A stretch of 64,000 bases of DNA from Patescibacteria group bacterium (GCA_041665545.1 JBAYIQ010000002.1:2369-66368); one strand, 5' to 3'; shown: positions 9,641 through 57,400, counted from the stretch's first letter. Numbers and translations: made by a program. Notes: generated by a model from the letters alone, not told the origin.

Positions 9641-9688
9641 AATAGCTTTATTATAACATATTTAAGGGCTTGTGGGCTAATGACCTAC

Positions 9689-10070: not shown

Positions 10071-10113
10071 CGCTTTTCTTAATAACGATTAGTATGTTTA
10101 TTTGGGTTCTGCT

Positions 10114-10236: not shown

Positions 10237-10244
10237 AACAAATC

Positions 10245-10682: not shown

Positions 10683-10733
10683 ATTTCTAAATTATTCGAC
10701 CCAGCGTGTCGGCCCGACCTCGCGGGTCTATCC

Positions 10734-11138: not shown

Positions 11139-11224
11139 ATAATATATTATACCATAATATTTGGAGTAACAAAAAACCCTACGCGAAATAGCGAGGGAAT
11201 TTTGTTTTTGAACTATAATAAATG

Positions 11225-11647
11225 CTACGAACAATAAGTAGCAGTTTGATTGGTAGCAGAAACACAACCATTTTGATTACATGTTATGCTCTCCCATGAA
11301 CCAGGTGTACCTGATTCTAAACCAATCTCCCATGTGCCATTTTGCGGATCCGCCTCAATGACGCAAGGTGTATAACCAGTTGGTGCTGTTGGCCATAATT
11401 GACCAATGGCATTACCAGCCGCTAATCCACAAATATCTGCAGTAACAAGATAAGGATTTAATACAGCAGTGGTGTCTTTATCTTGACACAAAACAATAGC
11501 GCCAGAAAGACTGGAACCCCAAGCTTTGGCAGCGGCTACTTTGGCTTTGTTTCTAGCTTGGTTCAAGTTAACAACGGCCACGACTGACAAAATACCGATA
11601 ATGGCAATAACCACTAACAACTCAATTAAAGTAAAACCTTTTTTCAT
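11225..11647 (-). CDS. type IV major pilin (PilA-like), paralog 1
   Basis: Start refined to the ATG at 11647, preceded by a GGAGGTG RBS: MKKG|FTLIELLVVIAIIGILSVVAVVNLNQARNKAKVAAAKA. Confidence 0.85.
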   Translation of the reverse strand: MKKGFTLIELLVVIAIIGILSVVAVVNLNQARNKAKVAAAKAWGSSLSGAIVLCQDKDTTAVLNPYLVTADICGLAAGNAIGQLWPTAPTGYTPCVIEADPQNGTWEIGLESGTPGSWESITCNQNGCVSATNQTATYCS

Positions 11648-11760
11648 TGTTGTTTCACCTCCCTTCAAATACCCAAGGCAATAATCTATAGCTTGAGATC
11701 CCCAAAGCTCTAAATAAATCCTTGGTTTTTTTAATTATTAAATTAATAAATACTTCTTAT

Positions 11761-11769
11761 ATTATATCA
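11761..11769 (-). promoter_or_regulatory. candidate extended -10 promoter element (TGATATAAT on minus strand) upstream of the major pilin gene
   Basis: The reverse complement of 11761-11769 reads TGATATAAT. A ~110-nt leader with a CCAAGG...CCTTGG palindrome precedes the RBS. Confidence 0.3.
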
Positions 11770-11793
11770 CAAAATAAGCCGAGCAACAATTTG

Positions 11794-13002: not shown

Positions 13003-13004
13003 AA

Positions 13005-14072: not shown

Positions 14073-14078
14073 GCTTTA

Positions 14079-14453
14079 TTATTTGTCTAAAATCTTTTTT
14101 ATTTTACCTACTACCTCTGATGGCACAAAATGGGCCTTGATTAGATAATCAGCGGCTCCCAAAGCAAAACATTGATCAATGTGCTCTTTTTCAGAATAAT
14201 TAGTCAGCACAATGACTGGTATCTTACTAGTTTCTTGGCTGGCTTTGATGTTTTTTAACACTTCAAAACCATCCATTTCTGGCAATTTCAAATCCAGCAG
14301 AACCAAATCAGGCAAATCTTTGGCAATCATTTTTAAAGCTTGCACGCCAGTGGTGGCCTGTATGACTTTATAATTTTCCAAATTTAGTTTGGTGGCATAC
14401 ATAGATAATAAAAATCCATCATCCTCTACCACCAGTATCATTTTTTGTTCCAT
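14079..14453 (-). CDS. single-domain response regulator receiver (CheY/PilH-like)
   Basis: 124 aa; MILVVEDDGFL...DLVLLDLKLPEMDG with conserved acidic pocket and phospho-acceptor Asp. It sits inside the pilus operon. Confidence 0.8.
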   Translation of the reverse strand: MEQKMILVVEDDGFLLSMYATKLNLENYKVIQATTGVQALKMIAKDLPDLVLLDLKLPEMDGFEVLKNIKASQETSKIPVIVLTNYSEKEHIDQCFALGAADYLIKAHFVPSEVVGKIKKILDK

Positions 14454-14468
14454 AAAAATTTCTTAATA

Positions 14469-16205: not shown

Positions 16206-16549
16206 GGATTGACCTCAACTTTTGGTTTGTTAAATGGCTCAGGATTCCCCACGCCCTCTTCTATATTTATATTGACACTAAAACCCTGCAATTGCTTGTA
16301 TTGCTCACTATTAAATAAATCGTCCAAACTATTACTACGCACAAAATTTTTATAATTTTCCTCGGTCAAAATCCGCTCTCGCTGAGCATCAACTTTTTGT
16401 TGATTGATTGGCTTGATTTGTCCCATTATTTTCCCCCAAACTTCTATCACTGATATATTTTTTTGCTGTAAATATATAAAGCCGCCAGCCAGAACAATGA
16501 CTAGACCCAAAGTAATTAATTCCCAAGATAATCTTTTTTTACTTTCCAT
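16202..16549 (-). CDS. small membrane-anchored protein (PilP-like position)
   Basis: 115 aa with an N-terminal TM helix; assignment rests on operon position after the pilO-like gene only. Confidence 0.35.
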   Translation of the reverse strand: MESKKRLSWELITLGLVIVLAGGFIYLQQKNISVIEVWGKIMGQIKPINQQKVDAQRERILTEENYKNFVRSNSLDDLFNSEQYKQLQGFSVNINIEEGVGNPEPFNKPKVEVNP

Positions 16550-16552
16550 ATT

Positions 16553-17284
16553 TTATCGATAATATGTCTGGACTGAAAATTGAAATTGCGGTGGAGTTTT
16601 TGAATCTTCCTGCAAAGAAGCAAAATTTACTGTTTGGATATCAGTCAAGCGTAAATTTTTCTCCAAGGCATCCAAAAATTCTTTGAATGACTCATAATAT
16701 GTTTTGTTTTGGCCACCATTGGCTTCTTCCATAGTTACTTCACCATCTGTAGCTTGAGGGCTTATTTTGAAGGCCACCACCAAAGTCTTCAGTGCTATAA
16801 TATTTTTACTTTTCGTGGTGGTGGCAACTTGAGTAGTAGTATTACCATCTTCATCGCTGACTACTACTTGGGGACTAGACTTTTTTTTGTCCTCGCCGTC
16901 AGTGATACTAATATCCAAAAGTTGGAAGCCATATTCCAAGGCCAATCTATCACTCAAAACAAAAAGCTCAGCAATTTGCGGATTGTTGGGTACAATTTCT
17001 TTCAAGCGCTCTAAATCAGCCTGACGATTACTCATAATACCTTCATAAGTAGTCTTCAGGGTCTCTAGATTTTTTAATAATTGCTGACTTTTATCTTTAT
17101 CTACCGAGGTCTGCAGAGCACCCTCGCGTAAAGTATCATTGCTTTTTATTTTTTGTTGAATAAGTATATAGTAACCGCCCAATAGCAAAACTCCCACTAA
17201 AATCGCAGTAATAATAATCCAAAAACGATTGAAGAAAAGCAACAATTGTGAGGGCTGTTCAAATTGTACTTGTTTGTCTGGCAT
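16553..17284 (-). CDS. PilO-like pilus assembly protein
   Basis: 243 aa with an N-terminal TM helix then a coiled-coil region; position after the pilN-like gene. Confidence 0.45.
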   Translation of the reverse strand: MPDKQVQFEQPSQLLLFFNRFWIIITAILVGVLLLGGYYILIQQKIKSNDTLREGALQTSVDKDKSQQLLKNLETLKTTYEGIMSNRQADLERLKEIVPNNPQIAELFVLSDRLALEYGFQLLDISITDGEDKKKSSPQVVVSDEDGNTTTQVATTTKSKNIIALKTLVVAFKISPQATDGEVTMEEANGGQNKTYYESFKEFLDALEKNLRLTDIQTVNFASLQEDSKTPPQFQFSVQTYYR

Positions 17285-17289
17285 AAATA

Positions 17290-18762
17290 TTAGTTTTCTT
17301 GACTATAATAAAATAAGTCTTGATTGAGCGATAAAATAATTTGAAAACTGACCGCACCATCTTTATCTTGTTTGGCACTGGTGATACTGGCCTCCTCCAC
17401 AAATTCTTGAGCTTTTTCAGAATTCAAAACTTTGAGCTGTTTGGCCACACTATCATAGCTATTAGTAGAGGCGTTTAGTGTCAAACCGCCATTAGTACCA
17501 ACTGCCAGGCCCGAATAATAAACATCGCTGACTGTATATTTTTCTAATAAGCTGAAAAAGTGTGTCCAATAAATATGCTTATTTAGGGCATCCTGAACTA
17601 CTCTAATTTCTTGGCCCAGGGTGTTAATATTTTTGTTTAATTCCGAAAAAGTTAATATCTTTTTTTCAATTTCAGATATTTGCTGTTTCTGATTATTTTG
17701 ATTACCTATAATCTTCTGTTGTTCCAACATCAAGTAGCCATAAAGGCCGCCTAATATTGCCAATGACAAGACCAGTCCAAAAGCCAGCAATGAGCCAATT
17801 TGTTTCCAGCTCCTGACTTTGGCGGCAACAGGAATCAAGTCCACTATACCACTAAGCAAAGAATTTTTTTCACCAACTTCCGGCATGTGAAATTTCGGCC
17901 CAGTGGTCAATGGCTTGGGGATGTCGGTGTTGTCTTCTATGGATGCCATTTTCGGTTCTGGCTCTACTGCTTTTGGCGCAATCGGCATGGCAAAATCATT
18001 GACGATTGGCTGGGCTTCAGCTTTTGGTAATTCTGACGTCTGGCTAACTGGCCAGAGTGGAGCGGCACTGACTGGTTGAAGTGGAGCTAAACCCACTTCT
18101 TCACTGACTTTTTTGGTCAGATCAAAATTTGTTTCTGGCTGTGTCGTGACACTTACCTGATCATTTATTTTTTTTGGCTTTAGATCATTGCTGTCAGCGC
18201 TTTCAGCTGACTTATTCAATTCTTGAAGAACCTTGATGCTTGGCTTGGCTTCTGGCTGATGCACACCATTGCCATTGTATTTCAGGCCATTGCTAAGAGC
18301 TGAACTGTCTGATTTTTTGGCTTTTGGCTTTGATTTGAACATGGCCAAAAATCTAGACCAAAAAGACGGACCGTGGGGCTTATTTTCTTTTGACAATTTG
18401 GCTTTTTCCGGCACAAAATCCTGAATATGCTCTTCTATTTTAGCTGACATTTTTTCCGGTACTCGCATATCAATGGAAACAACTTTTGGTTGACTATTGG
18501 TCTTGTCGTCATTATTGTATTTTATACCCTGACCCAAGGCCGAAACAGTCGGCGTGTCTGAAGTGGCTTTTTTGGGCTTTTGATCATGCTTAAATAATTT
18601 TGACCACCAAGAAACTTGCCCACCGCTGAGTTTTGGCTCTTTAAATTTTTCTTTTTTACCAGATATTTTGAAGTCCGGATCAAATTTAAAAATGGGGCGC
18701 TTGGATTTATCCTCTCTAGAGCGTAAATTTTCTGGCATTAGATTAATTTTCTTGTCGTCCAT
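17290..18762 (-). CDS. PilN-like pilus assembly protein with long disordered N-terminal extension
   Basis: 490 aa; a Lys/Pro-rich low-complexity N-terminal half, then a TM helix and a C-terminal PilN-like domain; immediately after pilM. Confidence 0.45.
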   Translation of the reverse strand: MDDKKINLMPENLRSREDKSKRPIFKFDPDFKISGKKEKFKEPKLSGGQVSWWSKLFKHDQKPKKATSDTPTVSALGQGIKYNNDDKTNSQPKVVSIDMRVPEKMSAKIEEHIQDFVPEKAKLSKENKPHGPSFWSRFLAMFKSKPKAKKSDSSALSNGLKYNGNGVHQPEAKPSIKVLQELNKSAESADSNDLKPKKINDQVSVTTQPETNFDLTKKVSEEVGLAPLQPVSAAPLWPVSQTSELPKAEAQPIVNDFAMPIAPKAVEPEPKMASIEDNTDIPKPLTTGPKFHMPEVGEKNSLLSGIVDLIPVAAKVRSWKQIGSLLAFGLVLSLAILGGLYGYLMLEQQKIIGNQNNQKQQISEIEKKILTFSELNKNINTLGQEIRVVQDALNKHIYWTHFFSLLEKYTVSDVYYSGLAVGTNGGLTLNASTNSYDSVAKQLKVLNSEKAQEFVEEASITSAKQDKDGAVSFQIILSLNQDLFYYSQEN

Positions 18763-18772
18763 TTCAAAAAAA

Positions 18773-19873
18773 TTATATATCGCGCATACCTAGGCCAATA
18801 GCCACGGACATGCGTGGACCAATCTCATGCAAAACTGGCTTCAAATCCAAAGGATAAATCACTCTGTCCCAAGGATCACCAATCACCACTGGCAAATTCA
18901 AGATGGTGTTCAAATACTGTGGTAAATTTGGTAAAAAAGCGCTACCACCAGTCAAGACAATCTTATCAATCATGGAATTACCTAGGCGCTGATAACTGTC
19001 AAAAATAAATTTTATTTCATTGATAACTGGTGTCAAAGATTTTTCAATAACCTCTGGAATGTTTTGGGTATTGCCAGCTGACAAACCAAAATCTCGCTTG
19101 AATTGCTCGGCTCGATCTTGGTTGATATTCAAGCTGTTCATAATAGCCTTGGTGATTGACTCACCACCAGTGTCAATACCGCGGTTTAAGACCGGCACTC
19201 CTTCTTCAATAATACAAATATCCGAATTACTGGCGCCAATATCCACTACCATGACCGTGGACAAATCATTGCCAATCAAAGAACGCGACAAGGCAAAGGC
19301 CTCAGTTTCCAAGCTCAATAAATTAAGCTTGGCTTTTCTAAATATATCAATATAGCGGGCTACTAAATTTTTTGGCGCCGCCGTTAATAAAATACGATAA
19401 TTTTTGTCATCATCTTTTTTGGCGGCACTTTGATTTTTTACCAAATCAATACCGGCTACTGGCGTGGCTGTGGCCGCTGATTTTTTCCTCTTACCTAATA
19501 TCTTGTGATCCAAAATCATTTCTTCAATTGGCACGGGAATAAATTTCTTAGCTTCCCACTTGATAGCCGCTTGTAAATCTTTTTTGGGCATGGGTGGCAA
19601 AGTGATAATAAAATTGAACACCGAAAAAGTAGGCAAGGCGGCTACTACCTGCTTGGTTTCCATTTTGGATTTGTGAGCGATCAAATTGATATAATCAGCA
19701 ATAGCTTGGTTATTTTTTTCGGCTGAACCACGCAAAATATTGGCCGCCACCTCAGCGTAACCATAAGTTTTGAGCTTGGCCTGGCCCTTGAAATTTTCCA
19801 GCTCCACCAGCTTGATGCTGGAGGTGCCTATATCAACGCCTAAATAGCTAGTAGTATTAGAAAATAAACCCAT
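18773..19873 (-). CDS. pilM: type IV pilus assembly ATPase-fold protein PilM (actin-like)
   Basis: 366 aa; GVDIGTSSIKLVEL... and ...MVVDIGASNSDICI are actin/FtsA-like phosphate motifs typical of PilM. Confidence 0.85.
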   Translation of the reverse strand: MGLFSNTTSYLGVDIGTSSIKLVELENFKGQAKLKTYGYAEVAANILRGSAEKNNQAIADYINLIAHKSKMETKQVVAALPTFSVFNFIITLPPMPKKDLQAAIKWEAKKFIPVPIEEMILDHKILGKRKKSAATATPVAGIDLVKNQSAAKKDDDKNYRILLTAAPKNLVARYIDIFRKAKLNLLSLETEAFALSRSLIGNDLSTVMVVDIGASNSDICIIEEGVPVLNRGIDTGGESITKAIMNSLNINQDRAEQFKRDFGLSAGNTQNIPEVIEKSLTPVINEIKFIFDSYQRLGNSMIDKIVLTGGSAFLPNLPQYLNTILNLPVVIGDPWDRVIYPLDLKPVLHEIGPRMSVAIGLGMRDI

Positions 19874-34986: not shown

Positions 34987-35916
34987 CTAATCACCTCCAC
35001 AACGACTAGCGTCTATACCCCACTCACCTCCTACTGGCGCACACTTATCAGCACGATAAGGTATGTCCTCACAACACCAGGTTCTAGAATCTGGATTATT
35101 TTCAATTTGACAATCACTATTACTAGAACATGATTTTGTTCTTAAATCTGAACAAATTGTGCTCCAATAACAAACCTCACCTAGTGGAGAGGTGCCATTT
35201 TTAAAATTTTTACCATAACAGGCATTAACGCGGCAGTTTGGTTCATCCAAAGCATCCATGAAATATCTAATACCTTCATAACCACTTGAGGAGTAGGTTC
35301 TTTCTGATGAAATGGGAAATTCTATTTGCAGACAATCTATAACCGTACTTGGTGCTGTGGCAGCTACTGCTGTTGTATCTAGGCATTTGCCAGTAGCCGT
35401 GGCATCAAGGGCTATCTGTTCTGGAGTGGCCTTTACCCACTTACAACTAGGTGCTGGACAAGATTTTTCTATAGTAAACACCGAACAAGTAAGTTTTGGT
35501 AAATCCCTGTTCAGTGGCTCAAAAGATACTAAACGCTGACTAATTAGTGATAACAATATATAGCCCCCAAACAAAAGAGCCAAACCAATCAAGGTGCTAT
35601 TGATCTTGTCTCGAGCACTAGATATTTTGGATGAATTACCACCAGCCAGTAACCACTCCCAGCCAGCATAGACCAACATAAACATAGCCACCACCCCAGC
35701 AAACATACCGCCATAGCGGTATATACCAACAATGTATTTGGCTAAAGATGAGCCATCAACTAAAAATGGCTCTCCGGCTGTATAAAGCCCAGGAATAGTC
35801 ATGGATGGTATAAACTCTAGTGGCGTAGTATTTTCCTTATCAGCGGCTATTACAATATTGGCCAACACAAAACCAAGAGAAAAAATCAGCAATAAAATTA
35901 TTTTTTTATTTTTCAT
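34987..35916 (-). CDS. VirB2/TrbC-like pilin-fold membrane protein with Cys-rich C-terminal domain (paralog A)
   Basis: 309 aa with a signal peptide and two hydrophobic helices separated by a short polar loop (GMFAGVVAMFMLVYAGWEWLLAGG-NSSKISSARDKIN-STLIGLALLFGGYILLSLIS). The C-terminus has ~18 Cys. The N-terminal 150 aa are near-identical to 35932-36978. Confidence 0.45.
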   Translation of the reverse strand: MKNKKIILLLIFSLGFVLANIVIAADKENTTPLEFIPSMTIPGLYTAGEPFLVDGSSLAKYIVGIYRYGGMFAGVVAMFMLVYAGWEWLLAGGNSSKISSARDKINSTLIGLALLFGGYILLSLISQRLVSFEPLNRDLPKLTCSVFTIEKSCPAPSCKWVKATPEQIALDATATGKCLDTTAVAATAPSTVIDCLQIEFPISSERTYSSSGYEGIRYFMDALDEPNCRVNACYGKNFKNGTSPLGEVCYWSTICSDLRTKSCSSNSDCQIENNPDSRTWCCEDIPYRADKCAPVGGEWGIDASRCGGD

Positions 35917-35931
35917 GAAAAAATTCTATAA

Positions 35932-36978
35932 TCAATTTAATTGAAAGTGCCACCATTCGGTATCAAGTTGTTTAAAACCAGCACTACGCATTGTTTGAAG
36001 CAAAACCCATTGAGCATCATACAATCCAGGTACTCCGGCGCAAGGAGCAGGATTGGAGTGATTGTCCATGGCGCAATTGTATGCTTTGTTAATATACCCA
36101 CAGGTATCAACCGTGGAATTCTTAATGCAAATATCCACCGCTGTTCCAGTTTGGTGAGGAGCATCACAACCTGGTTTAGCCGCTTCATTACACGAGCGAC
36201 AACCAGTGGGACAAGTATTACCATCCTTATTAATATAACAATCATACAACTCCTTTTGTAAGGCCGTTGTACGATAAGCGCTATTTATTTGTAAACTATG
36301 CCCAGGATAGGCATTCAAAAATATTACTGCACTTCCTAGAGCTGAAATTGTCGGGCCAGTCAACCTGCAATCGGTGCACTCCGAACTAAGAATAATACCA
36401 CTAACTTGTATCGGCTTAACCAATGACTCTGAAGGACAAGCCGTAGACGCCAACGACAAAGCGTCTTTACAAAAACCCAAAACTTTTGGATCTTTTGCCA
36501 ACTCCTCGGCTGTAGCTGGAATCCAAAAACATCTAGCTTTGGTGCATTCATCTGGTTTACTAAAAGCCATACAAATTGCTTTCACATCAGGCAAAGCTGT
36601 ATTCAGTGGTTTAAATTTTACTAAATTTTCGCTAATCAAAGAAAGCAAAATATAGCCACCAAATAAAAGTGCTAAGCCAATCAGCGTGCCATTGATCTTG
36701 TCTCGAGCACTAGATATTTTGGATGAGTTACCCCCAGCCAGTAGCCATTCCCAGCCAGCATAGACCAGCATAAACATAGCCACCACGCCAGCAAACATAC
36801 CACCATAACGGTAAATGCCAACAATATATCTGGCTAAAGTTCCTCCATCTACCGTAACTTCCTTTGTGAATTCACTACCGGGTATATCGATGCTCGGTTT
36901 GAATTCTATAGCCATTACTAAAAGCGGCAAAAATATTGCTGTTACAAAATAAAAAGTTATTAAAAACTTTTTTAACAT
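35932..36978 (-). CDS. fusion protein: VirB2/TrbC-like membrane module plus C-terminal peptidase M15 (VanY/D-Ala-D-Ala carboxypeptidase-like) domain (paralog B)
   Basis: 348 aa with the same N-terminal module as paralog A. The C-terminus carries LAS/M15 zinc-hydrolase motifs SAYRTTALQKELY, HQTGTAVDI and EWWHFQ. Confidence 0.55.
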   Translation of the reverse strand: MLKKFLITFYFVTAIFLPLLVMAIEFKPSIDIPGSEFTKEVTVDGGTLARYIVGIYRYGGMFAGVVAMFMLVYAGWEWLLAGGNSSKISSARDKINGTLIGLALLFGGYILLSLISENLVKFKPLNTALPDVKAICMAFSKPDECTKARCFWIPATAEELAKDPKVLGFCKDALSLASTACPSESLVKPIQVSGIILSSECTDCRLTGPTISALGSAVIFLNAYPGHSLQINSAYRTTALQKELYDCYINKDGNTCPTGCRSCNEAAKPGCDAPHQTGTAVDICIKNSTVDTCGYINKAYNCAMDNHSNPAPCAGVPGLYDAQWVLLQTMRSAGFKQLDTEWWHFQLN

Positions 36979-38257: not shown

Positions 38258-38821
38258 TTATTCACCCTTTAAAATACCCCAAAATACTTTCCAGAAAATA
38301 CTACTCAAATTACTAAGCGTCTCTAATGGATTTTCATAAACTTGAACCATGAGGGTAATGCCCAGCATTATCATGTTAAAAATCGTAAAAATCACCAACA
38401 AGCCAATGAGCCACAATATTATTTCCCCCATACCCAATTTCGGAATAATCTTGGAGCCGAAAATGTTGCCAGCGATAAACTGCACGGTCCAAATCAAAAC
38501 CGTCAAGAATGCCAGAATGACCGTAGCCCCCATAGCCATGTTGACCGCTCGCCAAGTCAATTTTTGGGCTATTTCTTTTTTTATTTTTTCTTCGGCCTGT
38601 TGTTGTAAAACATTGCCATCCTTCTCGCCTTCTTGCTGTTTGGCCTTACCACGCAAAGATTCCAAACGTCGACGCAAAAATCCCTGACTTTTTTCCTCTT
38701 GTTCGGCTACTGGGTCTAGCTCCTCTGCTGTATCCGGCACAGAACTAGAAGCTACTCGACGAGCCGCTGCTAAATCCCTTTGATAATTTGCCTGTAAAAC
38801 TTCGGCCATAATTATTGCCAA
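38258..38821 (-). CDS. hypothetical membrane protein (cytoplasmic N-terminus, 3 C-terminal TM helices)
   Basis: 187 aa; hydrophobicity pattern only. Confidence 0.35.
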   Translation of the reverse strand: MAIIMAEVLQANYQRDLAAARRVASSSVPDTAEELDPVAEQEEKSQGFLRRRLESLRGKAKQQEGEKDGNVLQQQAEEKIKKEIAQKLTWRAVNMAMGATVILAFLTVLIWTVQFIAGNIFGSKIIPKLGMGEIILWLIGLLVIFTIFNMIMLGITLMVQVYENPLETLSNLSSIFWKVFWGILKGE

Positions 38822-39411
38822 TAAGCTGCGTCAACTAACCACTGCTTATCACTTTTTACTAAATTAACTTTTATATCTTGATATAATGTATTAGAAACTA
38901 ATTTACCATCCACCGACTTTGTTTCTTGTCTTTGAGTCTGGACCGTAATATCTGCCCGACTAGCAGAAATACTATTCACCTTCTGGGAAATACTCTTAGT
39001 GGTAATTCCTGTATAGCTTGTGGCCTTATAATCCATTTCTAAATTTTTTAAATAAATAGCCATCTTGTCAGTACACTGACCGAGAACTTGCTTGATATTT
39101 TCTCCTGGCAAGTCCGAGGAATAAGTGCCATAACGCTCAGCAAAATTCAGGGCTGTTTGGATGGCCAATAATTCGTCATTACTAACAATTGGCGACACTT
39201 CTTTGTATTGCAAATTGGCACTAGCCGGTTTAAACTCTGGCAATTGGTTACTATTTTTATCATTGGGCTTTTGTCCAAAATCAGTCAATTTGAAGGCCAA
39301 GAACAGAGCCACGGCAACTATTATAACCACCAAGGCAATTATAATTATTTTTTTTCTTTTTACTGCATCCATATATTTTATATTTACCCCGTTAAATAGA
39401 ATTAAAGCCAC
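38812..39411 (-). CDS. bitopic membrane protein (possible VirB8-like role, speculative)
   Basis: 199 aa with an N-terminal TM helix then a ~150-aa extracytoplasmic domain; directly downstream of the VirB4-like gene. Confidence 0.3.
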   Translation of the reverse strand: MALILFNGVNIKYMDAVKRKKIIIIALVVIIVAVALFLAFKLTDFGQKPNDKNSNQLPEFKPASANLQYKEVSPIVSNDELLAIQTALNFAERYGTYSSDLPGENIKQVLGQCTDKMAIYLKNLEMDYKATSYTGITTKSISQKVNSISASRADITVQTQRQETKSVDGKLVSNTLYQDIKVNLVKSDKQWLVDAAYWQ

Positions 39412-42101: not shown

Positions 42102-42572
42102 TTATTTATTTATTTTTCCGTTTGGTAAATTATTCATGGTATTGGCCAACAGTTCTCCTTGATATACTCCGCCAGTATCAATAATCAATGATAGTTCTGA
42201 TAATTTTTTGCCGGTCACCATTGTTTTGGGAGCTATTGTTTGCACTACTAAATTTTCATCTTTATTTTTGCGCTCTTCAATTTTAATATATTCTTTTTTC
42301 CAAATCCGCAATCTCGGTCTTTTCAAAGTCTGGATAAGGGACAACAAAAACATAGGAAAAATAGCACCATTTATTTTAACAAAACCAAAGATTACTATTA
42401 ACAAAATAATAACTATAGTCTGCGTCAAAAACAAAGCAAAATCAGCCAAACGATAACTAATAAATATAAAAAGAGCCCCAACGATAACAATGGCAAACTG
42501 CCGGACAGTAATCGGTCCCCAGATTCTATCCTCGGCATCAATAAATTGTGGCACAATAAAACGATTTTGCAT
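42102..42572 (-). CDS. PrgI/VirB3-like two-TM membrane protein
   Basis: 156 aa with two adjacent TM helices near the N-terminus; located immediately upstream of the VirB4 ORFs, as VirB3 and PrgI are. Confidence 0.4.
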   Translation of the reverse strand: MQNRFIVPQFIDAEDRIWGPITVRQFAIVIVGALFIFISYRLADFALFLTQTIVIILLIVIFGFVKINGAIFPMFLLSLIQTLKRPRLRIWKKEYIKIEERKNKDENLVVQTIAPKTMVTGKKLSELSLIIDTGGVYQGELLANTMNNLPNGKINK

Positions 42573-47657: not shown

Positions 47658-48899
47658 TCAATTATCCTGCCAGCTGAGCTGGTTTTTTGTCACTTGCAAA
47701 TTACGCCACTTGAGCTGACCATCTTTTTGATCAAGGTAAGTCACTTGACCAGATTGTGCCCACTGACTGGTCAGATAAAAAGCGGCCACGGCTGATTCTA
47801 GTTCTGACAAACGCAATTTTTCGGCTAAGATTAGCTCCAAAAACAAACGCCGACCCAAGAGCTTATCTTGATTGCTACCAAACCATAAGCCAATATCATT
47901 GCCATAGCGCACGCCAATAAATCTTTTCAAAATACTTATGAAGCGACTATCCTCACTAATCAAACTATCTAGGGCCTTGTGACTGACTAGTACTTTCAAA
48001 CAGCTCAATACTTTTTCTTTGTCATTCATAGCCACGGCATTCCACAAAATATCCCGCACTTTATAAATATCATTTCCCGCTTCTGATAAAACAAAACTTT
48101 CTGGCAAAAGCAATTGATCTAGTTTGTTGACATTATTATTGAGGTTGGCAATAGCTGTTTCGATATTAATTACTTCGGGAGCTTGTTCATCTTTTTCCTG
48201 CTTTAGCTCAGCCCACAAAACGCCCTCTTGATTCTCAATATCAATGGGCATATTTTCATCATAGGACAACAAGAAACAGCGCAAAGATTCTCGCTCTTTG
48301 GGATCAAGCTCTAGGGCATTGGGACTTTTGGCTAGATATTGCGCGCGTTGCAAGGAGTTGTGATAGCCAGCGCCAAGATAATGCACGTAGTCTTTGATCC
48401 AGTTGTCTAGAGTAGGCATCAAGCGCCGAAAATCAGTGCCCGCAATCTTTTTGGCTGAAATGCGTAACTCTACAAAATCATCATAATCGGACATAAATTG
48501 CTTGACTGTGCCGTGAGCATGCTCAGGAAATAATTTTTTTTGCAAAGTGACGCTTTTTAAATGTATTGCTTTGGGTACTTTGCCACCCAAACGCAAAATA
48601 AGACGATCAACATTACCTAAATAATCTTGGATAGGCCAAAAAATATTTAGAGCAATGTCTAATGAAATAGCTCTTAGGTCATAATAACTTGCCCGCTCCA
48701 TCTCTTCCAAGCGTACCGGAAAATCAAGTACAGATATTTTCTTTAAAAAAACTAAATTTACCAAGTCCATGATAAAAAAAGTCTGAGTATTGTTTAAAGG
48801 ATAACGTCCAAAAATCTGAATATTTTTATTAATCAGCTCATCACTGGAAATATATTCCCGAATTTCATCGGGAAGATTCTTTAGATCATCTATAAACAT
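47658..48899 (-). CDS. hypothetical cytoplasmic protein
   Basis: 413 aa with no TM helix and no recognised motif. Confidence 0.35.
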   Translation of the reverse strand: MFIDDLKNLPDEIREYISSDELINKNIQIFGRYPLNNTQTFFIMDLVNLVFLKKISVLDFPVRLEEMERASYYDLRAISLDIALNIFWPIQDYLGNVDRLILRLGGKVPKAIHLKSVTLQKKLFPEHAHGTVKQFMSDYDDFVELRISAKKIAGTDFRRLMPTLDNWIKDYVHYLGAGYHNSLQRAQYLAKSPNALELDPKERESLRCFLLSYDENMPIDIENQEGVLWAELKQEKDEQAPEVINIETAIANLNNNVNKLDQLLLPESFVLSEAGNDIYKVRDILWNAVAMNDKEKVLSCLKVLVSHKALDSLISEDSRFISILKRFIGVRYGNDIGLWFGSNQDKLLGRRLFLELILAEKLRLSELESAVAAFYLTSQWAQSGQVTYLDQKDGQLKWRNLQVTKNQLSWQDN

Positions 48900-48906
48900 T
48901 TAAAAA

Positions 48907-51435
48907 TTAGGTTATTCCTTGCTTCTCCTCTAGTAGCTTCAATTGAGCTGTAGTTAATCCCTTGTCAGCAATTGGCGAATGAGGAGTTCCAGCAACTACT
49001 GGATTCATCTTTACTAATCTTGTTAATTGACTTCTATCCAGTTTCAAAAGATCGTCAAACCTTAAGGTCTGAGCAAATTTTGATAAGTCTGCATCATTCA
49101 CTGCCCCCGAGTTAGGGTCAGCAAAAGCTAAATGTCCATACTTCAAATCATTATGAGCTAACTGCCCTTGAGCTGCAAATTTTGCATCAACAGCTGACAT
49201 TCCTTTGGCAACACCAACTTTTACTAAATCGGGTATTTGACTAACAAAGTTAGCTATAATATCTGACTCCTGAATATCACCCTTATTTATAGATGGTATA
49301 TTAATTATATTTTGGATGCGTCCCATTCTAATCTGATTATTAACAATCTCCTTTCGCTGGGTATCAGTATTTGATAGATTGTACATTTCGGCTGTCTTAC
49401 CAGGACTGGCATGACCAGCAACATCTCTAAATAGAGCTGATTTTTCGTCAATTTTAATCAAATCCTCTGCTTTGGTAGTTGTGGCCAAATTCTTAGCAAA
49501 TTTTGCTCGCTGTACATCATTGGCTTTAGCATATTCGGCATTAATACTACTCTTTGTCCCATCTTTCGCGTCAAATTTACCCAACAACAACATTGCTTTA
49601 CCAAAATCTGACTTATCGTCATCGATGGTGCCAACTAGCTTACCACTACGTACGTGCTTATCCAACTCATCCATAAAATAATCACGCATTTCTTTTGTCA
49701 TGGACTCTGCACCGCTAGTAACGGCCTTAAAATCCTCACTGAGTAATCTTTGGGTCTGTGCTAAACTCATGCCCTGAGGATTCATCTTGCTCAGTGTAGC
49801 GGCAACACCATTAGCAGTAATTTGTTTTTCAAAACTTTCAGGAGTGGCTACAGCCATACTTCTAGCACGCAACCTTTCTAGTGATTTGTAATCACCAGCT
49901 GCTTCAAAGTCTTTAGCCATGTCTTCAGCTCTTTTGGGATCAATGGCCTTTTTACCTTCTAAGTCAAGTTTTGCTAAATTTGCTTTAGCTTCACGCTTAC
50001 CCATAAATCCAACACCTTTAGCCACTGTCTCATTATATTCTTTAATTTGCTCATCAGACATGCCTTCAAACCGCTTGTCATATTTGGTCTGCTTTCTCTG
50101 CCTGCGACTAGATTCTTTGGCTTGCAGTGCTAGGCCAGTCCTTTGCATAGCGCCAATACCCAAAGCTCCACCCATAACTGCCAAACCCTTGCCCGTAAAA
50201 CCACCTGCTTGACCCACAAAACCTTTAGCTCCGCCTTCTCCGCTAGTGCCTTGCCAAGCTAGCCTGGTTGCTCCTCCAACTGCAAAACCAGCGGCGCCAA
50301 TAGTAGCACCCCGGCCAATGCGACTACCCCACTTCTGCAAGCTGTTTGAGGCCTTGCCAGCCACCGAGGCACCGGCGGCGCCTGAAGAAGCGGCAAACTT
50401 CAAGCCAGCCATAAGTAGCGTAATAGCAATCACAAAATTCAACATATTGGCTGTATCGGCTACTTCACTAACAACTGTATCGTATGTTTTAGTCTCATTT
50501 ACATATTTAGTACCATCTGGTGCTGTTGTATTTTCAGGAAAAGAACTGGCGATACTGCCCTGACCTACAATACTAAAAGCCAGCCACATAAAAAAAGCCA
50601 AAGCCGGACCAGTGGTCAAATTCTTGGATAACTCAGTTTCCCACTGCCCGTAATAGCTACTGGTTTTGGGAAAAGCGCGAGCCAAAAAAGCCATTGGCGC
50701 TAAAATAATCAAAATCCAAAAGCTAATAATACGCATAACAAACATAATCAGTATCACACCCATAATAACTGTAGTAATGATCATCATAATACCGCCCAAA
50801 ATCATGGCCATTAAATAAGATACTCCCGTATAAGTGCCAGTAACCCCACTAGGAAGATTCATTATTTTTTGCAAACCTAAAGCAACTACGTAATTACCAG
50901 CCAGATTCTCAAGAACTGGCGCTAGAAATGTCAAAGTTATGACTTGCGAAAAATCAATTAATAAAGCAACAATTGACTTGCTAAAATTTATCAAAATAGC
51001 CATAAGTAGTAGCTTTGACAAAAGCTGGCGATAGCCAAAACCCTGCACCTGTAAAATAGTACCAAAGGCCATAAGCAGGAGGATCAAAATAAAAAACATA
51101 TTAGCCAAATCACGCACTGTTACCCAAGCTTGTTTTACCTGATCTTGACCAGTAAAATTATTATAGGTTCCAACTGTATTAAACATTTTTATCTCCAACA
51201 GCAAAATGACACTGGGTAGCTTGATGGTAAAAAGATAAACAATGGTTCCAAGTTGTTTGGCTAGCCAATCGCCTGTATCGGCGGTAATTTTATTATTTAT
51301 AAATCCTTGCACCAAATTACCTGCGACATTTGTTGCATCTGCCTGAGCTTCAGCAAATTGCGGCACAAAAGTAACAAAAGTAAAACTGGCCAACAAAATC
51401 ATCAGCAAATACTTGGGCTTTTTAAATAAATTCAT
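48907..51435 (-). CDS. VirB6/TrbL-like polytopic membrane protein with Gly-rich hydrophilic C-terminal half
   Basis: 842 aa with a signal-like N-terminus, about 8 TM helices in the first ~340 aa, then a Gly/Ala-rich segment and a long hydrophilic tail. Confidence 0.4.
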   Translation of the reverse strand: MNLFKKPKYLLMILLASFTFVTFVPQFAEAQADATNVAGNLVQGFINNKITADTGDWLAKQLGTIVYLFTIKLPSVILLLEIKMFNTVGTYNNFTGQDQVKQAWVTVRDLANMFFILILLLMAFGTILQVQGFGYRQLLSKLLLMAILINFSKSIVALLIDFSQVITLTFLAPVLENLAGNYVVALGLQKIMNLPSGVTGTYTGVSYLMAMILGGIMMIITTVIMGVILIMFVMRIISFWILIILAPMAFLARAFPKTSSYYGQWETELSKNLTTGPALAFFMWLAFSIVGQGSIASSFPENTTAPDGTKYVNETKTYDTVVSEVADTANMLNFVIAITLLMAGLKFAASSGAAGASVAGKASNSLQKWGSRIGRGATIGAAGFAVGGATRLAWQGTSGEGGAKGFVGQAGGFTGKGLAVMGGALGIGAMQRTGLALQAKESSRRQRKQTKYDKRFEGMSDEQIKEYNETVAKGVGFMGKREAKANLAKLDLEGKKAIDPKRAEDMAKDFEAAGDYKSLERLRARSMAVATPESFEKQITANGVAATLSKMNPQGMSLAQTQRLLSEDFKAVTSGAESMTKEMRDYFMDELDKHVRSGKLVGTIDDDKSDFGKAMLLLGKFDAKDGTKSSINAEYAKANDVQRAKFAKNLATTTKAEDLIKIDEKSALFRDVAGHASPGKTAEMYNLSNTDTQRKEIVNNQIRMGRIQNIINIPSINKGDIQESDIIANFVSQIPDLVKVGVAKGMSAVDAKFAAQGQLAHNDLKYGHLAFADPNSGAVNDADLSKFAQTLRFDDLLKLDRSQLTRLVKMNPVVAGTPHSPIADKGLTTAQLKLLEEKQGIT

Positions 51436-51471
51436 AAATATGTTTTATTATTCTAATGATATTTTTTTCGA

Positions 51472-54400
51472 CTATTGAAGTACCACGATCCAGCCGGCAA
51501 AAGAGGTCCAAGCACTCCAGTTTCCCCAGTTGTCCTGTACCCTGACTGTCGGCTTATAGCATGAAGCATTATCAATGTAAGGCTCGTTCATTGGTGTGGA
51601 AATGTCACCGTCACACAAATCTCCCTGACCACCAAGCTGATAATCATGATAAAAAGTCTTGTAGGCCTCACGGCAAGCTCGCTCCGTGCCACCAAAACCC
51701 TGCTTAGTAGTAAGAATTTGGCCGGGCAGTGGAGCATCAACATTACAATCAGGTATATTGTTTTTGTACTTGCCGGGTATGGTGGTGATGGCGCTACCAT
51801 CTCCCCAGTCAACCTCGATACTTTTGACTGGCATGTGATCGGGGTGGGCATAATAATAAAACTTGAGCGAAGCAAAGAAAGATTGTTTAGCCTCAATACT
51901 GCCACCCTGCGCCTCGTTGACTGTCACACCATTAATCACTACTTTATTTGCGTCGCGACAAACATCCGAGCCACAAACTGTCAAAATCCGCGGTACAAAA
52001 TCTGGACCAGCCAGAGTGTTTTGGCCACGAGTTGCGGCCGCGCCAACATAAATATTATCTACTGTGTATGGCTCATAGACACTATTTGTATTATTCCACT
52101 GCATGTTATAAACCCGATAAAACATGTAAGCCAACTGAGTATGAGCTGCCGTCAAATCAGTTGATAAATTGCCTGTACCGGGCGCATAAAAAGTAGCGGC
52201 CGCTAGCGGTGAAAAAGTGCTGGCATTTACTGGCACGCGAACATTGACTACATCTTTGCCTAAATAGCCCAAAGCTGAACCAAAATGAGTAAATTTGTTA
52301 TTTTCACCAGTGATGCTGGCATAATTAACATTAGAATTTTGGATGAACCCAGACTTGTAATAATAGGACAGCCAAGTATTTGGCGTGGGATAATTGTTGC
52401 GTCCTGAATTGCCACTGCCGGTTTCATTGCGCCACCAAATATCCGTCCTAACCCAAGATTTGTCACCTTCAGAGTCAAGATCAACCACAATCTTACACTG
52501 CTGATAACAGGCCATGCCTGTACAGGTCCTGCCAGACATTTCGGCTGTATAAAATGCTGAATCTGCATCACATGGAACATCACACGACTTATCGGGAAAT
52601 GGTGTTGGATTTGAAACCGCTGTAACACCAGTAAATATATCTGACTGCAGACAGCCATCGATAGAGCTCTCATCCACCAACCAAGTATCAAGACCATCTT
52701 CTACTCTGGTCACATTGCCAAGGGCTTGGGCTATCAAGCCATTGTAAAGTGTATCATCAGGATCAACGCCTTGCCTTATTTTTAAACCACCGGTGGCGCT
52801 AGCTATACTTATTGGTTCGACACTTAGGATGTTACTAAGACAACCAGTTACTGAATTCACATCACGCATGGTTGTACCATCTGCTGACCAAGTGTCGCTA
52901 CCATAAATGATAGAGCCATAATCCACACACAAATAAGGAGAAGAAATATCTTCCACACAGTTCACAAAAGCGCAGCCCGGCACAGAGTCTGAGCCACATG
53001 AAGCTTCTAGAGCCCTATAGGGGTCTGAAGTCATCAAGCACGCTCGCCCTTTTGCTGGCGCTTCAGGCGCTCCACATATTGGCCCCGTGCCACTCACAAC
53101 ATCGGCTAATTCGGCTTTGACATAATAATTCCAAGATCCGGGATTACAAAACCCTTGATAAACTTGGTGATAAGGCCCATTAAGACATGTATCACTCGTA
53201 CTCGTGCAAGCATTTGACGCGTCATCTGGCCTATCAGGTTCGGCAGTGACTGAGCTAACACAGCCGGTAGTAGGATCGCTCGTTGTGTCACCGATATAAA
53301 TTCTGGCATCCTCATCACCATCTCCGAACCGGTCTATATTTTCATCATAATAAAACAAGTCTATTTTATTTGTTCCCGTATCAAAAAGATTCCTTAAGAC
53401 AGATTTATCAACAACTGGCATCTTGGATAAGTCATTACCCGGCGTCAGGACAAAATCTTCCACTGAAAACTTGGCCCCCTCATAAGAGACGCCCACGCTT
53501 AAGTCTCTTTTTTCTATATATTCAAAGGTGTAAGGTGGAGTGCTTGGTGGTGATGAGTCATAATGATTCATTTTCTCTGGCCGTAAATAGTTGTAGCTTA
53601 TCAAACTACTATTGCCAGCTATACTATTCGCTAAAATTTTTGAACCAGCTGGTATACGTATCAGCAGATTGCAATTCCGAGGGTCAGTACCACCACGACG
53701 ACCACAATATATTCTACTTTCCTGCAATATATAGGGCTCAGTCACTGAACAAAATAATGCCTCCCGACCACCCGGTTCATAATACCCAGCTTCACGGTAA
53801 TTATCATACAGTGAATTAGTACCACTTATCTGGTCAGCTGGATACCACTGGTTGCAATAATTAGTACCACCAGTGTCATTGACCACTTTGGAGTTGGCAT
53901 CATACTCTAGACAAATACCTGACCAATTAAATATAGTTTCGGCTTTTACTTTCTTATCACAAGTTCCATCACTTCTGGAAGTGCCATCGGTATTGTAAGT
54001 ATCACACAAATTATTTTGCGCAAAACCAGCACTGTCCACACAATCAACATTAGTATCAGTATTACCCGAACTACAAATACCTCCCGGACTGGGGAAATTC
54101 TTTGGATAATATCTGACCGTACCACCAGCGCCATAAGTCACCTTGATATAGGTAGCTTCACAGCCATTAGGTGAAGCCGTGATTGGTTCTACCTGATCAA
54201 CCTCACACATATTAGCACCAGCATAAGATTGGAGACGATCGAGACGACCAGAGTCTGGCGAGATAGATCCAGGGAAGGGCGAATCAGATTGGGCATAGCC
54301 CCTAGTTTCTACTCCCAAAGCTTTATTAGTATCAACTACCGGATTGAGTAAACAACGACTGCCACGACACACGCCATTAAACAAATCACCAGCAATGACT

Positions 54401-57400
54401 GCTGTACAATCCGTCCCCTCTCCGCTACAACCTGAGCCATTGTATACCAGTTGTGGCAATGGCGCAGTAGCTGAACCAGCATTGGTCACACCTAATGTGG
54501 CTATCGGCAACATATTTGGTATAGAGTAGCCGGTGTATTCCTCATCGCCAAACTGCATATGATTGTCTGCCCCTGTAGATCGATTTTGATAATTATCGAC
54601 AGTCAAGGCCTGGATTGTTGGCGTTGCCCATTCACCACACTTAGTAACATTATTTTTACTATCAAATTCTGTGCAAGTTCCTATATCAGCACAAACGACT
54701 TTGTATCTATTATTATCATTGTCCCAGACAACCGAAGAAGAGCGACAAGCCAGCCACTCGCTACACTGACGATCTTTGCGGACTTTAAGCAAAACATTGG
54801 AGTCAAGATTACAAGGTGGATCAAGAGTGGTGTCAGTCGGATCACAAGTCACCGGGCTAACTGCCGTGCCTTTAGAAACATTGAGATTATAACTTTGGAC
54901 AGCGTCATAGTTGAGATTCACCATGGTATGATCGCTGTTCCAATTATTGGCTTCCTTGAACAAAACGCAACCATTATTTTCATTGACTTGACCATTGCAA
55001 CTGGCCTTATCTATTTTTTCATTATTATAATAATAGTAGGGTTGACATTCTGCTGAATTGGGATTAAGGGTAAAGGTACCACCAGCCCCACTGCAATTTA
55101 ACTCATCAGTAATGCCTATACACTCGGTTGCTGCCAGTGTGGCACAATCACTACAAGTACCCACACCGCAACCAATAGGATCAGTTGGGTCATAAAAAGT
55201 TGTGCAGAGGTTTTTATCAGCTGGACAAGAGGCCACATTTTCGCCTAAGGCAAAGTCCGCCGCATCATAAGCATTGTCGGTATCCAAGCAACCCAAAGGC
55301 AGTGGGTCTTTGAGGTTGGCCGTCTTGAACCAACCAGTTATTATATTGTTACCAACAGTCACATTGGACTGGTAGGTACAGGTCTCAGTTCTCGGGTCTT
55401 TAAAATAATACGCTCCTTTATCAGAAGAATATTCTTCACAATACAAGTCATCACTGAAGCACAAAGATGAAACATATTGATCGGGATCGTTTATTTTGTA
55501 AACCGTTGGCAAATAGCTAGAAATGGTCCTATCGGGCAGACCCAAGGCCTGACAACCCTGATAGACTGCTGGACAGTATTTTCTATTATCTGGCACCAAG
55601 TAAGTAATGCTGTCAGCTGGCACTGTAATCTGCGAAGGATCAGTTGGGTTATTGTGAAATGTTTCCGTAAATGGATTGTCAGAATTATGAGTATCTACCA
55701 CCGCCATACAACCAATGGCCTCTACGCGACATAAATTCTGGAATGACTTTAAGTTATATTTATTGTTATTGGTGTCAGTGTATGTCTGGCAACCTAGATG
55801 ATAACCAACATAGGGGGTATCACAAGACACTGGTGTCTGCCAAGAATTCCTAATGACATAGATATTACCAGCTACTTCTTTGAGTATGATATTGTCCAGA
55901 AACACACTGCCGTTTTCATTGGCCGCATTACGCCCGGAAGAAAATACAATTTTTGCGCTATTGAGATTATAAGCTGTTGGATCAAGTTGATCGAAATATT
56001 GGGTAACAGTATAGTATTGCCAATTATTAGCTGGTATATTCTGTAATGAAGCATCAGTACCCATACTTATTGGAAATAAAACCTCTCCTCCCGAACTATT
56101 TGTCACCGATAGATTCCAGGCGACCTGTCCGAGCGATACTGATGGCTTCATCCACCAAGACAACTTATATTGCTTGTTATTTTGGATCGCCCCTACGGCA
56201 ACCTGAGCTACGCCATTGGTCCTGTCTAATTTTAGAGAGTGCCCATTTCTTTCCAATGATTCGCTGGACAAGTCTAACACTGTTCCCATCAAGCCCTGCC
56301 AAGGCGTATAAGCGGCGCGCTCAAAATCATCAGTAAATATATTACGGACATTGTTGGCGGTATTGCCATAGTAAGCACGACAACCGTTTTGAGCAGCTGA
56401 GCATTTGTTGCTCAACGACGGTGTAGCTCGATAAACGACATTGGGATTTAGTGTTCTTCGATAGTCGTGACAATCATCGCTGGCAAAAATTACCCGGTCT
56501 TGTAGACGATAAAAACTATTGCCAGCTGGATTAAAAAATTGTCGACAATTAGCGTTAACGCTTGGGTCATCAAGTAAGCTGGCTGTCTCTGTTCCGCAAG
56601 CAGCGACTGTCACCCCAACTCCATTATCATTACAAGCGTTACTACCCGACAAAATATTAGTGCATGGTGCATAAACAGTGCCAGTTGGTAATACTGTAGG
56701 CACATTGCTAGGCAAGGCCTTCCAAGCTCTGATTTGATAACCAGCCACATCAGTGCCTTCCCAAGTGATATAATCTTCTCCTTGATCAACAGACACACAT
56801 TGTCTTAGATAAGTATAATATTCTTTGCCCTCACCGCCAGCAGCCACAGCGTCAACATTGGTGAACTCTTCACAGCCAGCCACTGTCGCTGAACAAGATT
56901 TAGCTGTAGATGGTATAAAATTATAATAATTAAAATCAGCAGTTGGATTTTCAATTAAGTCAAAATTATCTGGCTCTTCGGCAAAACTAGCATAGCCCAC
57001 ACATTCGTTGGGACATAAATCGTTTTGCGAAATAACAGCTGGGATCATGGGGTCGCCATTTGAAGGAGTATAGCCCTGACAACCAATTTCTTGAGCAGTG
57101 CACATAAAGCGACTGCCATTCATATATATTTTTAAATCATTACCATAATTCGAATAAGCTGAAGCCGCGCGAGGTTCACTAACTGCTTCTATTTTAAAAT
57201 TGTCAAAATAAGAAGGCAAAAAACTAACATTGTTAGCATCATACGACCCGAAACCGATCATACATTTGACACTACTGCCAGTATTAAAAGTTCCACTAAT
57301 AACCGCATATTCCGTAGTACTAAGTTCACTGGCCGGTACCATTATATTAGCCTCATCAAACAAATTACCCGCCGAATCATTAGTTATACGGGTTGCCGGA

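Follow-up and report, generated by a model that had tools for sequence, protein, structure and literature searches.

Why should two neighbouring bacterial genes encode proteins that share a pilin-like module and then end in unrelated domains, one of which is a peptidase? Here we address this question for a pair of genes, hereafter A and B, located at positions 34987-36978 of a 64,000-nucleotide stretch of DNA from a Patescibacteria group bacterium (GCA_041665545.1 JBAYIQ010000002.1:2369-66368), the whole of which we call the window. A and B stand last in a chromosomal type IV secretion system (T4SS) operon of the monoderm (MPF-FATA-like) type in Patescibacteria (Candidate Phyla Radiation, CPR). 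The reading that we prefer, and to which we give a probability of roughly 60%, is that both proteins are pilin-like T4SS subunits whose heads are displayed outside the cell, with the M15 peptidase head of B doing the wall-opening job for which other systems use VirB1.

A preliminary description of this DNA had pointed to two adjacent open reading frames (ORFs) in this interval, and both were recovered on the minus strand, B preceding A with 15 nucleotides (nt) between them (Table 1). In the case of B we favour a start giving 348 residues over the 327-residue call of NCBI because the ATG of this start shares bases with the stop of the gene before it (TAATG). The NCBI protein (P0001, named 'M15 family metallopeptidase') is 100% identical to B but starts 21 codons downstream, thereby losing the predicted signal peptide (36916-36978, B residues 1-21), and the longer start is the one used in the B orthologues P0002-P0004. 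A is identical to P0022, which is annotated as 'hypothetical protein'. The two proteins were initially described as nearly identical over their N-terminal ~150 residues. This is true of a hairpin of ~70 residues (A 56-125 against B 46-115, 68/70 identical in a codon-wise scan) but overstated for the rest, the overall identity being 58% over 187 residues (BLASTP) and only ~37% in the signal peptides plus the ~30 residues with which the mature proteins begin. The accompanying claim of a DNA repeat with ~90% identity over ~170 bp was right in extent (161/181 = 89% between 35560-35740 and 36652-36832, at a constant offset of 1092 nt), although the second interval had been placed at 36640-36810, a shift of 12-22 nt. 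The longest exact run between the two DNA copies is 36 nt. Over 66 codons of the core, A and B are 87% identical in nucleotides and 97% in amino acids, with 0.78 synonymous (dS) and 0.02 nonsynonymous (dN) substitutions per site.

Profile searches, alignment and structural modelling agree that the C-terminus of B is a genuine zinc peptidase of the LAS/M15 fold and family, as had been proposed from its motifs. All three quoted motifs are present (SAYR at residue 233, HQTGTAVD at 275 and EWWH at 341), and the head passes the Pfam cut-offs of both PF01427 Peptidase_M15 (31.3 bits, cut-off 27) and PF02557 VanY (26.7 bits, cut-off 25). The H-x6-D and E-x-x-H zinc/catalytic set and the SxxR arginine of LAS enzymes are all present, and R236, H275, D282, E341 and H344 are invariant in 23 full-length orthologues, as are W342/W343 and several cysteines. 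The AlphaFold2 (AF2) model of B, obtained from the alignment of the 23 orthologues, has a mean predicted local distance difference test score (pLDDT) of 82, with values of 89-95 over most of the head. Foldseek placed this model next to VanX 1r44 (E 1.8e-6), VanXYc 4oak, LdcB 4jid/4mph, ChiX 5opz, the hedgehog N-terminal domain and an endolysin, and a profile search of the PDB returned VanX (2.3e-7) followed by YodJ and LdcB. No Pfam match to the lytic transglycosylase domain SLT was found in A or B, B being a peptidase, and its head most likely cuts the stem peptides of peptidoglycan. The fusion of this head to a pilin module is also not confined to the window. At 95 bits or more, a profile of the M15 head matches only proteins of 327-371 residues (plus the 210-residue fragment P0021), and the pilin module is present in all of them, as judged from a precomputed PF18895 match or from alignments. 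Free-standing M15 proteins score at most 69 bits, and the fusion is therefore an old dedicated pilin-M15 clade rather than a one-off.

The module shared by A and B begins with a signal-peptide-like segment and continues with a nearly invariant F-x-P-x-x-x-I-P-G motif and two long hydrophobic helices, between which lies a basic loop, GGNSSKISSARDK, whose residues include K, R and K. The hairpin is followed in both proteins by a linker of ~60 residues with four cysteines, ~38% identical between A and B, and divergence becomes complete only beyond this linker. By family-wide comparison the module is a divergent T4SS_pilin (VirB2/TrbC-like) hairpin, at the family level only. PF18895 (T4SS_pilin) is matched by 26/26 related modules (best E 2.7e-9). 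A profile of the module retrieves 64,589 cluster representatives among 1.84 billion, and when the best 131 matches were scanned PF18895 was found in 124 and TrbC/VirB2 (PF04956 TrbC) in nine, both models falling on the same segments. The VirB2-like nature first attributed to the module is hence upheld for the family, but both window proteins remain below the cut-off when they are scanned alone, and the isolated B module reaches 17.2 bits against PF18895. As ~230 residues follow the hairpin in B and ~180 in A, which departs from the small, hairpin-only form of VirB2/TrbC pilins, A and B contain the module of this family without being canonical pilins.

In the course of these searches we also observed single predicted proteins with 5-17 tandem T4SS_pilin modules (P0055, P0057, P0059, P0060, P0061, P0085, P0097 and P0107), the one with 17 stretches being P0060, of 1775 residues. 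They could be true 'polypilin' polyproteins, or the outcome of a wrong stop-codon table that joins tandem pilin genes by readthrough.

The distribution of cysteines gives the likely orientation of the proteins in the membrane. All of them (16 in B and 15 in A, the latter bearing out the early description of the second C-terminus as cysteine-rich) lie past the hairpin and none before it and, since the loop between the helices is basic, we predict that both ends are outside and the loop is cytoplasmic. This has consequences for the suggestion that the proteins are delivered effectors, that is, soluble proteins that the T4SS passes through its channel to a target cell. The genes do lie within a T4SS operon, and antibacterial T4SSs that deliver peptidoglycan hydrolases exist in the X-Tfe systems of Xanthomonas. 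Both A and B nonetheless combine a Sec-type signal peptide with two membrane helices and cysteines that are all predicted to be extracytoplasmic, which points to Sec export and oxidative folding outside rather than to recruitment from the cytoplasm, and the Pfam and NCBIfam scans detected no VirD4-type coupling protein in the cluster. We regard delivery through the channel as very improbable indeed.

The genomic context associates both genes with the secretion machinery. The operon is tightly packed on the minus strand in the order u403, PrgI, TrsD-like, VirB4, two small membrane proteins, u411, B and A (the letter u and the length in residues standing for genes without a family name), with RecG converging on its end. 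The scan against NCBIfam returned nothing for A, u411, u187, u199, PrgI or u403. VirB4 function appears to be split, the 228-residue TrsD-like gene overlapping the 635-residue ATPase gene by 17 nt. We compared 18 loci, taking one genome per species, and found the order EFP-u403-PrgI-TrsD-VirB4-u199-u187-u411-pilin(s)-RecG to be identical in the 18 genomes wherever the contigs reach far enough, with VirB4 identities of 79-98%. Only the pilin slot varies. The window, L001-L005, L007 and L010 have an M15 gene followed by a cysteine-rich one, and so does L021; the slot holds one cysteine-rich pilin in L009, L011, L013-L017 and apparently L008, and two of them in L012 and L018. In all loci L001-L018 u411 directly precedes the pilin gene or genes, often with overlapping stop and start codons, and u411 may be a dedicated partner of the pilin-like proteins. 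The records L001, L003, L004, L006, L008 and L012 are titled 'uncultured Gammaproteobacteria bacterium' despite their typical Patescibacteria T4SS locus and are probably mislabelled.

Table 1. Positions in the window of genes A and B, of their parts and of the remaining genes of the T4SS operon (TM, transmembrane).
Feature	Position	Strand	Description and basis
ORF B, 348 residues	35932..36978	minus	Signal peptide, pilin-like hairpin, four-Cys linker and M15 peptidase head; ORF list
ORF A, 309 residues	34987..35916	minus	Signal peptide, pilin-like hairpin, four-Cys linker and Cys-rich head; ORF list
Near-identical DNA core, B copy	36634..36843	minus	181/210 identical to 35542-35751, offset 1092
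Near-identical DNA core, A copy	35542..35751	minus	181/210 identical to the B copy
B residues 1-23, predicted Sec signal peptide	36910..36978	minus	Ends ...LVMA, then IEFKPS; hydrophobic segment 6-24; AF2 helix 2-21; inferred cleavage site
B residues 24-116, FxPxIxIPG motif and two-helix hydrophobic hairpin (T4SS_pilin-like)	36631..36909	minus	Basic loop GGNSSKISSARDK; AF2 helices 47-80 and 85-115; TM-like segments
B residues 117-180, small four-Cys linker domain	36439..36630	minus	Homologous to the same region of A; alignments and Cys counts; AF2 pLDDT 83-88 at residues 130-170
B residues 181-348, LAS/M15 zinc peptidase head	35935..36438	minus	12 Cys; R236, H275, D282, E341, H344; Pfam, alignment, Foldseek, PDB profile
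A residues 26-126, FxPxxxIPG motif and pilin-like hairpin	35539..35841	minus	AF2 helices 57-90 and 95-128; TM-like segments
A residues 191-309, Cys-rich head	34990..35346	minus	11 Cys; motif C-x-x-N-x-D-C ... W-C-C ... C
Upstream gene (u411), 411 residues	36978..38213	minus	N-terminal TM helix (segment 6-24) and probable beta-propeller; weak PD40 match, 13.2 bits, below cut-off
Two small membrane proteins, 199 (1 TM) and 187 residues (2 TM)	38258..39411	minus	T4SS operon members
VirB4-like ATPase, monoderm CD1110 type, 635 residues	39520..41427	minus	PF19044 101 bits; NF045971 344 bits, cut-off 325
TrsD-like protein, 228 residues	41411..42097	minus	NF041427 TrsD E 3.1e-10, below cut-off; matches the N-terminal part of VirB4 models
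PrgI (VirB3-like) membrane protein	42102..42572	minus	PF12666 35.2 bits, cut-off 27; two TM segments
First gene of the conserved cluster (u403), 403 residues	42578..43789	minus	No recognisable domain; syntenic in loci reaching far enough upstream

That both genes stand last in a conserved VirB4 operon fits the VirB1-like wall-remodelling role that had been put forward on first inspection. It bears as well on a plainer explanation, according to which B would be a housekeeping DD- or LD-carboxypeptidase of the cell's own peptidoglycan, the hairpin a plain membrane anchor and the place in the operon a coincidence. The closest solved relatives of the head (VanX, VanY and LdcB) are indeed enzymes of stem-peptide metabolism, and both NCBI and JGI give the B orthologues no name more specific than M15 peptidase or D-Ala-D-Ala dipeptidase. 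A coincidental position is hard to reconcile with genes that are always last in the VirB4 operon of the 18 syntenic genomes, and with a start of B that overlaps the preceding stop. A generic anchor would not predict membership in the T4SS_pilin family and concerted evolution with a paralogue (see below). All M15-head matches of at least 95 bits are fused to the pilin module, and hydrolases of at least five families occur on this module. We therefore consider a housekeeping enzyme with a chance location to be unlikely.

Having two copies of nearly the same hairpin side by side, the locus gave the initial impression of a recent duplication. In that explanation a recent tandem event would have been followed by the replacement of one C-terminal domain, and both the 89% identity of the core DNA over 181 bp and the fact that heads do get replaced on this scaffold are in its favour. 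Comparison among genomes tells a different history. The pair is kept in the same order in the eight other loci listed above, with VirB4 down to 79% identical and M15 proteins that are 44-71% identical to B. Denoting the M15-type and cysteine-rich-type genes M and C, the signal peptide and the segment preceding the core are 28% identical between M and C of the same genome, whereas between genomes they are 55% identical for M-M, 52% for C-C and 29% for M-C comparisons. The linker behaves in the same way (34% within genomes; 45%, 37% and 30%, respectively, between them). In the case of the hairpin core the within-genome identity of M and C is 91%, and the between-genome values are 81% for M-M, 80% for C-C and 80% for M-C. 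In other words, the pre-core segment and the linker cluster by gene type, while in the core orthology leaves no trace and similarity is highest within genomes.

Core dS values between paralogues vary widely, from 0.08 in L007, 0.28 in L001 and 0.36 in L012 to 0.78 in the window and more than 1.3 in L002 and L004. Neighbour-joining analysis of the core codons grouped the two copies of L007 and the two of L012 with 100% bootstrap support each, and placed all four copies of the window and L001 in one clade (99.4%); grouping by gene type was obtained only in L002/L004, and monophyly of the M-type cores in 0/500 replicates. Because the pair recurs across genomes and its flanks group by gene type, we conclude from these comparisons that the duplication is old. 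The last homogenisation in the window was not recent. Independent duplications in the other genomes are excluded by the type-specific flanks. A recent duplication is accordingly very unlikely, and the near-identity of the hairpins is best explained by episodic gene conversion confined to the hairpin together with strong purifying selection (dN 0.02).

The preliminary description had named an assembly artefact, such as a collapsed repeat, as what could undo the N-terminal similarity. We rejected a collapsed or chimeric repeat because 11-14% of bases differ between the two core copies of the window, according to the interval compared, and the same gene pair is found in independent assemblies. 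The exact runs between the copies are short, as given above, and both ORFs are intact. Both proteins are on record from contigs of ~161.6 kb (B in NCBI being 21 residues shorter N-terminally), a copy of A being available from NCBI, JGI and ENA, and the M15-plus-cysteine-rich arrangement is present in at least eight other assemblies. What speaks for an artefact is that assemblies can jump at this repeat, as locus L019 shows, but for the window itself its probability is negligible. In L019 (ENA ERZ781237, 3x coverage) positions 322-1218 hold a single chimeric gene whose 5' half is of the M type and whose 3' half is of the C type. Its crossover falls within the core, at a place where an identical run of ~80 nt is common to the paralogues of that population (compared with L020 and L005). 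This chimera is either a real recombinational deletion between tandem cores or an assembly jump and, either way, it shows that the repeat is recombinogenic or confusable.

The cysteine-rich head of A is a conserved domain. Some 15-20 cysteine positions are conserved over the entire extracellular part in the family alignment, and a local jackhmmer search found heads of the A type in ~35/184 pilin-module proteins. AF2 models this head confidently, and fold searches with the model found no relative in the PDB. A sequence search with the C-terminal region of A alone returned two proteins only, the word-index search being too insensitive for a fast-evolving domain. That heads are exchangeable on the pilin scaffold is shown by P0023, the A orthologue of a close relative (locus L021), which is 84% identical to A over residues 1-194 and then continues into an unrelated cysteine-rich head. 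At the DNA level the similarity between L021 and the window ends at window position 35389 and returns for 32 nt just past the stop codon. Different cargo on a conserved module, as first supposed, is also seen among the best 131 matches of the module profile, where the fused Pfam domains are SLT (8), VanY (6) / Peptidase_M15 (4), 3D (2), Amidase_5 (1) and NlpC/P60 (1), most of the other members having cysteine-rich tails without a Pfam match. The head of A is, in our opinion, a fast-evolving, exchangeable domain that is most plausibly a binding or adhesin module.

Beside the variable head of L021, in the region 8927-9323, the pilin gene is followed by only 32 nt matching the 3' end of RecG and then by a further ORF. 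Judged by eye from its motif HWHFLL, this ORF may resemble a REP/IS200-type tyrosine transposase. It hints at rearrangement beside the variable head.

Exchangeable heads raise the possibility that the proteins face outward in an ecological sense too, as a host-directed weapon or adhesin. Presented on a filament built by the T4SS or at the site of contact, the M15 domain would digest the peptidoglycan of the host, and recognition of the host surface would fall to the variable cysteine-rich head. The only difference from our preferred reading is the target. The Patescibacteria in culture live as obligate epibionts, and the T4SS with its array of VirB2-like pilins is essential for the epibiotic growth of S. 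epibionticum (PMC10633639, PMC12857230). Heads are exchanged between close relatives; the pilin genes of a locus that is constant in other respects differ in kind and number, as is typical of host-range determinants; and many disulfides suit an exposed extracellular domain. Set against this, the M15 head is comparatively conserved (44-71% identity) within an old dedicated clade, more like a housekeeping assembly factor than a protein engaged in an arms race, and the T4SS is kept in genomes without an M15 copy at the locus. We see a host-directed function as possible, although we would not put it forward as the probable one.

Placing these results into a model in which A and B serve the assembly of their own T4SS, each subunit would consist of a Sec signal peptide, a VirB2/TrbC-family hairpin with its ends outside and its basic loop in the cytoplasm, a four-cysteine linker and a disulfide-rich extracellular head. 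The head of B would supply the wall-opening activity that is given elsewhere by VirB1, PrgK, TraG or TcpG and for which the operon has no other candidate, and that of A would act in binding or adhesion. Because they share the hairpin, A and B would be handled by the same machinery and would probably co-assemble. If the hairpins polymerise, the heads would face outside, as the termini of solved VirB2 pili point outward. We propose that gene conversion and purifying selection keep the core nearly identical, while its surroundings diverge, because the hairpins must match. The comparisons above establish the domain identities, the predicted topology, the place in a syntenic operon, the age of the pair, its mosaic of concerted evolution, the exchange of heads and the range of fused hydrolases. 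In this model we infer the enzymatic activity and substrate of B, the polymerisation into a pilus, and which wall, the cell's own or that of the host, is the target.

Several observations weigh against this model and keep our estimate from being higher. The scores of the B head against the NCBIfam equivalogs (DdpX/VanX, VanXY, LdcB) are 39.9, 22.7, 19.6 and 18.8 bits, far below their cut-offs of 176-320, so that its substrate is not fixed by orthology, and VanX, its best structural match, is a dipeptidase and not a wall hydrolase. Regarding the hairpin, the single-sequence scores against PF18895 (15.5 bits for A and 14.6 for B) are below the gathering score of 26.6, and the profile of the module matched no PDB sequence, and thus no solved pilin, even at E <= 10, which leaves the link to VirB2/TrbC resting on Pfam cross-hits rather than on a solved pilin. 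Fold searches with the full-length models yielded for the hairpin only generic helical hairpins and no solved T4SS pilin. The mature proteins (~32-36 kDa) are far above any VirB2-family pilin characterised to our knowledge; a head on every subunit may not fit the known packing of conjugative pili, and the hairpin may be an anchor or docking element only. Finally, several syntenic genomes lack an M15 copy at the locus (copies elsewhere in those genomes were not searched for), and the M15 head is therefore probably not universally required.

A bolder extension, which we offer tentatively and think doubtful at present, is that the T4SS of Patescibacteria builds a filament or contact structure out of head-bearing VirB2-like subunits, an enzyme-decorated pilus boring through and gripping the host wall. 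Its heads would be peptidoglycan hydrolases of several families or variable cysteine-rich binding domains, and gene conversion would keep the polymerising hairpins of the different head-carriers interchangeable. If true, a decorated pilus would explain at once the 'missing VirB1' of these bacteria, the essential pilin arrays in epibiotic growth and the breach of host envelopes by ultrasmall epibionts.

Two further regions of the window may be mentioned. A type IV pilus cluster lies at 5494-19873 on the minus strand, ~15 kb from the T4SS operon, and comprises PilX_N, N-methyl pilin-like genes, PilC (T2SSF), PilT-like and PilB-like ATPases (T2SSE, MshEN) and PilM. On the same strand, 47658-59745 holds three consecutive large ORFs (413, 842 and 2757 residues) without a Pfam match at E <= 0.01, the giant ORF of 2757 residues being just upstream of the T4SS region.

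Patescibacteria T4SSs, VirB2-like pilins, M15 peptidases and T4SS-associated wall hydrolases are all known already. We found no description of pilin-hydrolase fusions in the searchable literature and its supplements, and what we did not find described there is the fusion of a wall hydrolase to a pilin module, the dedicated pilin-M15 clade and the concerted evolution limited to the hairpin and accompanied by head exchange. Of all secretion machineries, only the T4SS with its VirB2-like pilins has been shown to be indispensable to a cultivated Patescibacterium living as an epibiont. The pilin module itself bears wall hydrolases from five or more catalytic families. Together with the dedicated clade at the end of a strictly conserved T4SS operon, this gives a concrete and testable answer as to where the wall-opening activity resides and may explain how the secretion systems of Patescibacteria cope without the standard wall-opening enzyme. 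Concerted evolution limited to one region, with exchange of the heads, is what one would expect to see if subunits with different cargo have to fit into a single assembly.

The nearest known systems are the VirB2-like arrays of the same phylum (Quinonero-Coronel et al. 2025, PMC12102498; Wang et al. 2023, PMC10633639), with which the window shares the PrgI-TrsD-VirB4 operon, the PF18895 family level and tandem pilin genes near virB4. The T4SSs of Patescibacteria are MPF-FATA-like, VirB2-like pilin arrays are common and relaxases and coupling proteins mostly absent, and most genomes with VirB2-like pilins lack VirB1 (PMC12102498). The published arrays have 2-11 divergent pilins with a mean identity of 25% and a maximum of 54%, fused domains not being mentioned (PMC12102498), whereas the hairpin cores of the window are 97% identical and are extended by ~230 (B) and ~180 (A) extracellular residues, one of the extensions being enzymatic. 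The PF18895 E-values of the window proteins (0.018 and 0.036) miss the detection threshold of that survey (i-E < 0.001, PMC12102498), and lineages like this one would consequently be scored as pilin-less under standard thresholds.

Among T4SS-associated hydrolases, B resembles VirB1 (SLT; diderms) and PrgK, TraG (pIP501) and TcpG (monoderms) in being encoded in the T4SS operon and in having an extracytoplasmic hydrolase domain, tied to the membrane by an N-terminal anchor, with a proposed role in wall opening. It differs from them in that its catalytic domain is an M15/LAS metallopeptidase instead of SLT, CHAP or LytM, and in that its anchor is a pilin-family hairpin common to a second, non-enzymatic paralogue. 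With VanX/DdpX, VanY/VanXY, LdcB and ChiX (MEROPS M15, LAS fold) it shares the fold, the H-x6-D ... E-x-x-H set and the SxxR arginine. Unlike these, the head of B has 12 cysteines, three of them invariant in the family and several others almost invariant, and it is fused to a pilin module in a clade apart from free-standing M15 proteins, with scores far below the equivalog cut-offs.

As regards the canonical conjugative pilins (VirB2, TraA, TrbC and TrwL, and the archaeal CedA1/TedC), the mature proteins are, as far as we know, of ~7-12 kDa and carry no extra domain, whereas A and B are of ~32-36 kDa and have no sequence-level match to a solved pilin. What A and B have in common with them is the signal peptide, the hydrophobic hairpin with its short basic loop, the VirB4 partner and the expectation, in our case a prediction, that the termini lie on the outer face of a filament.

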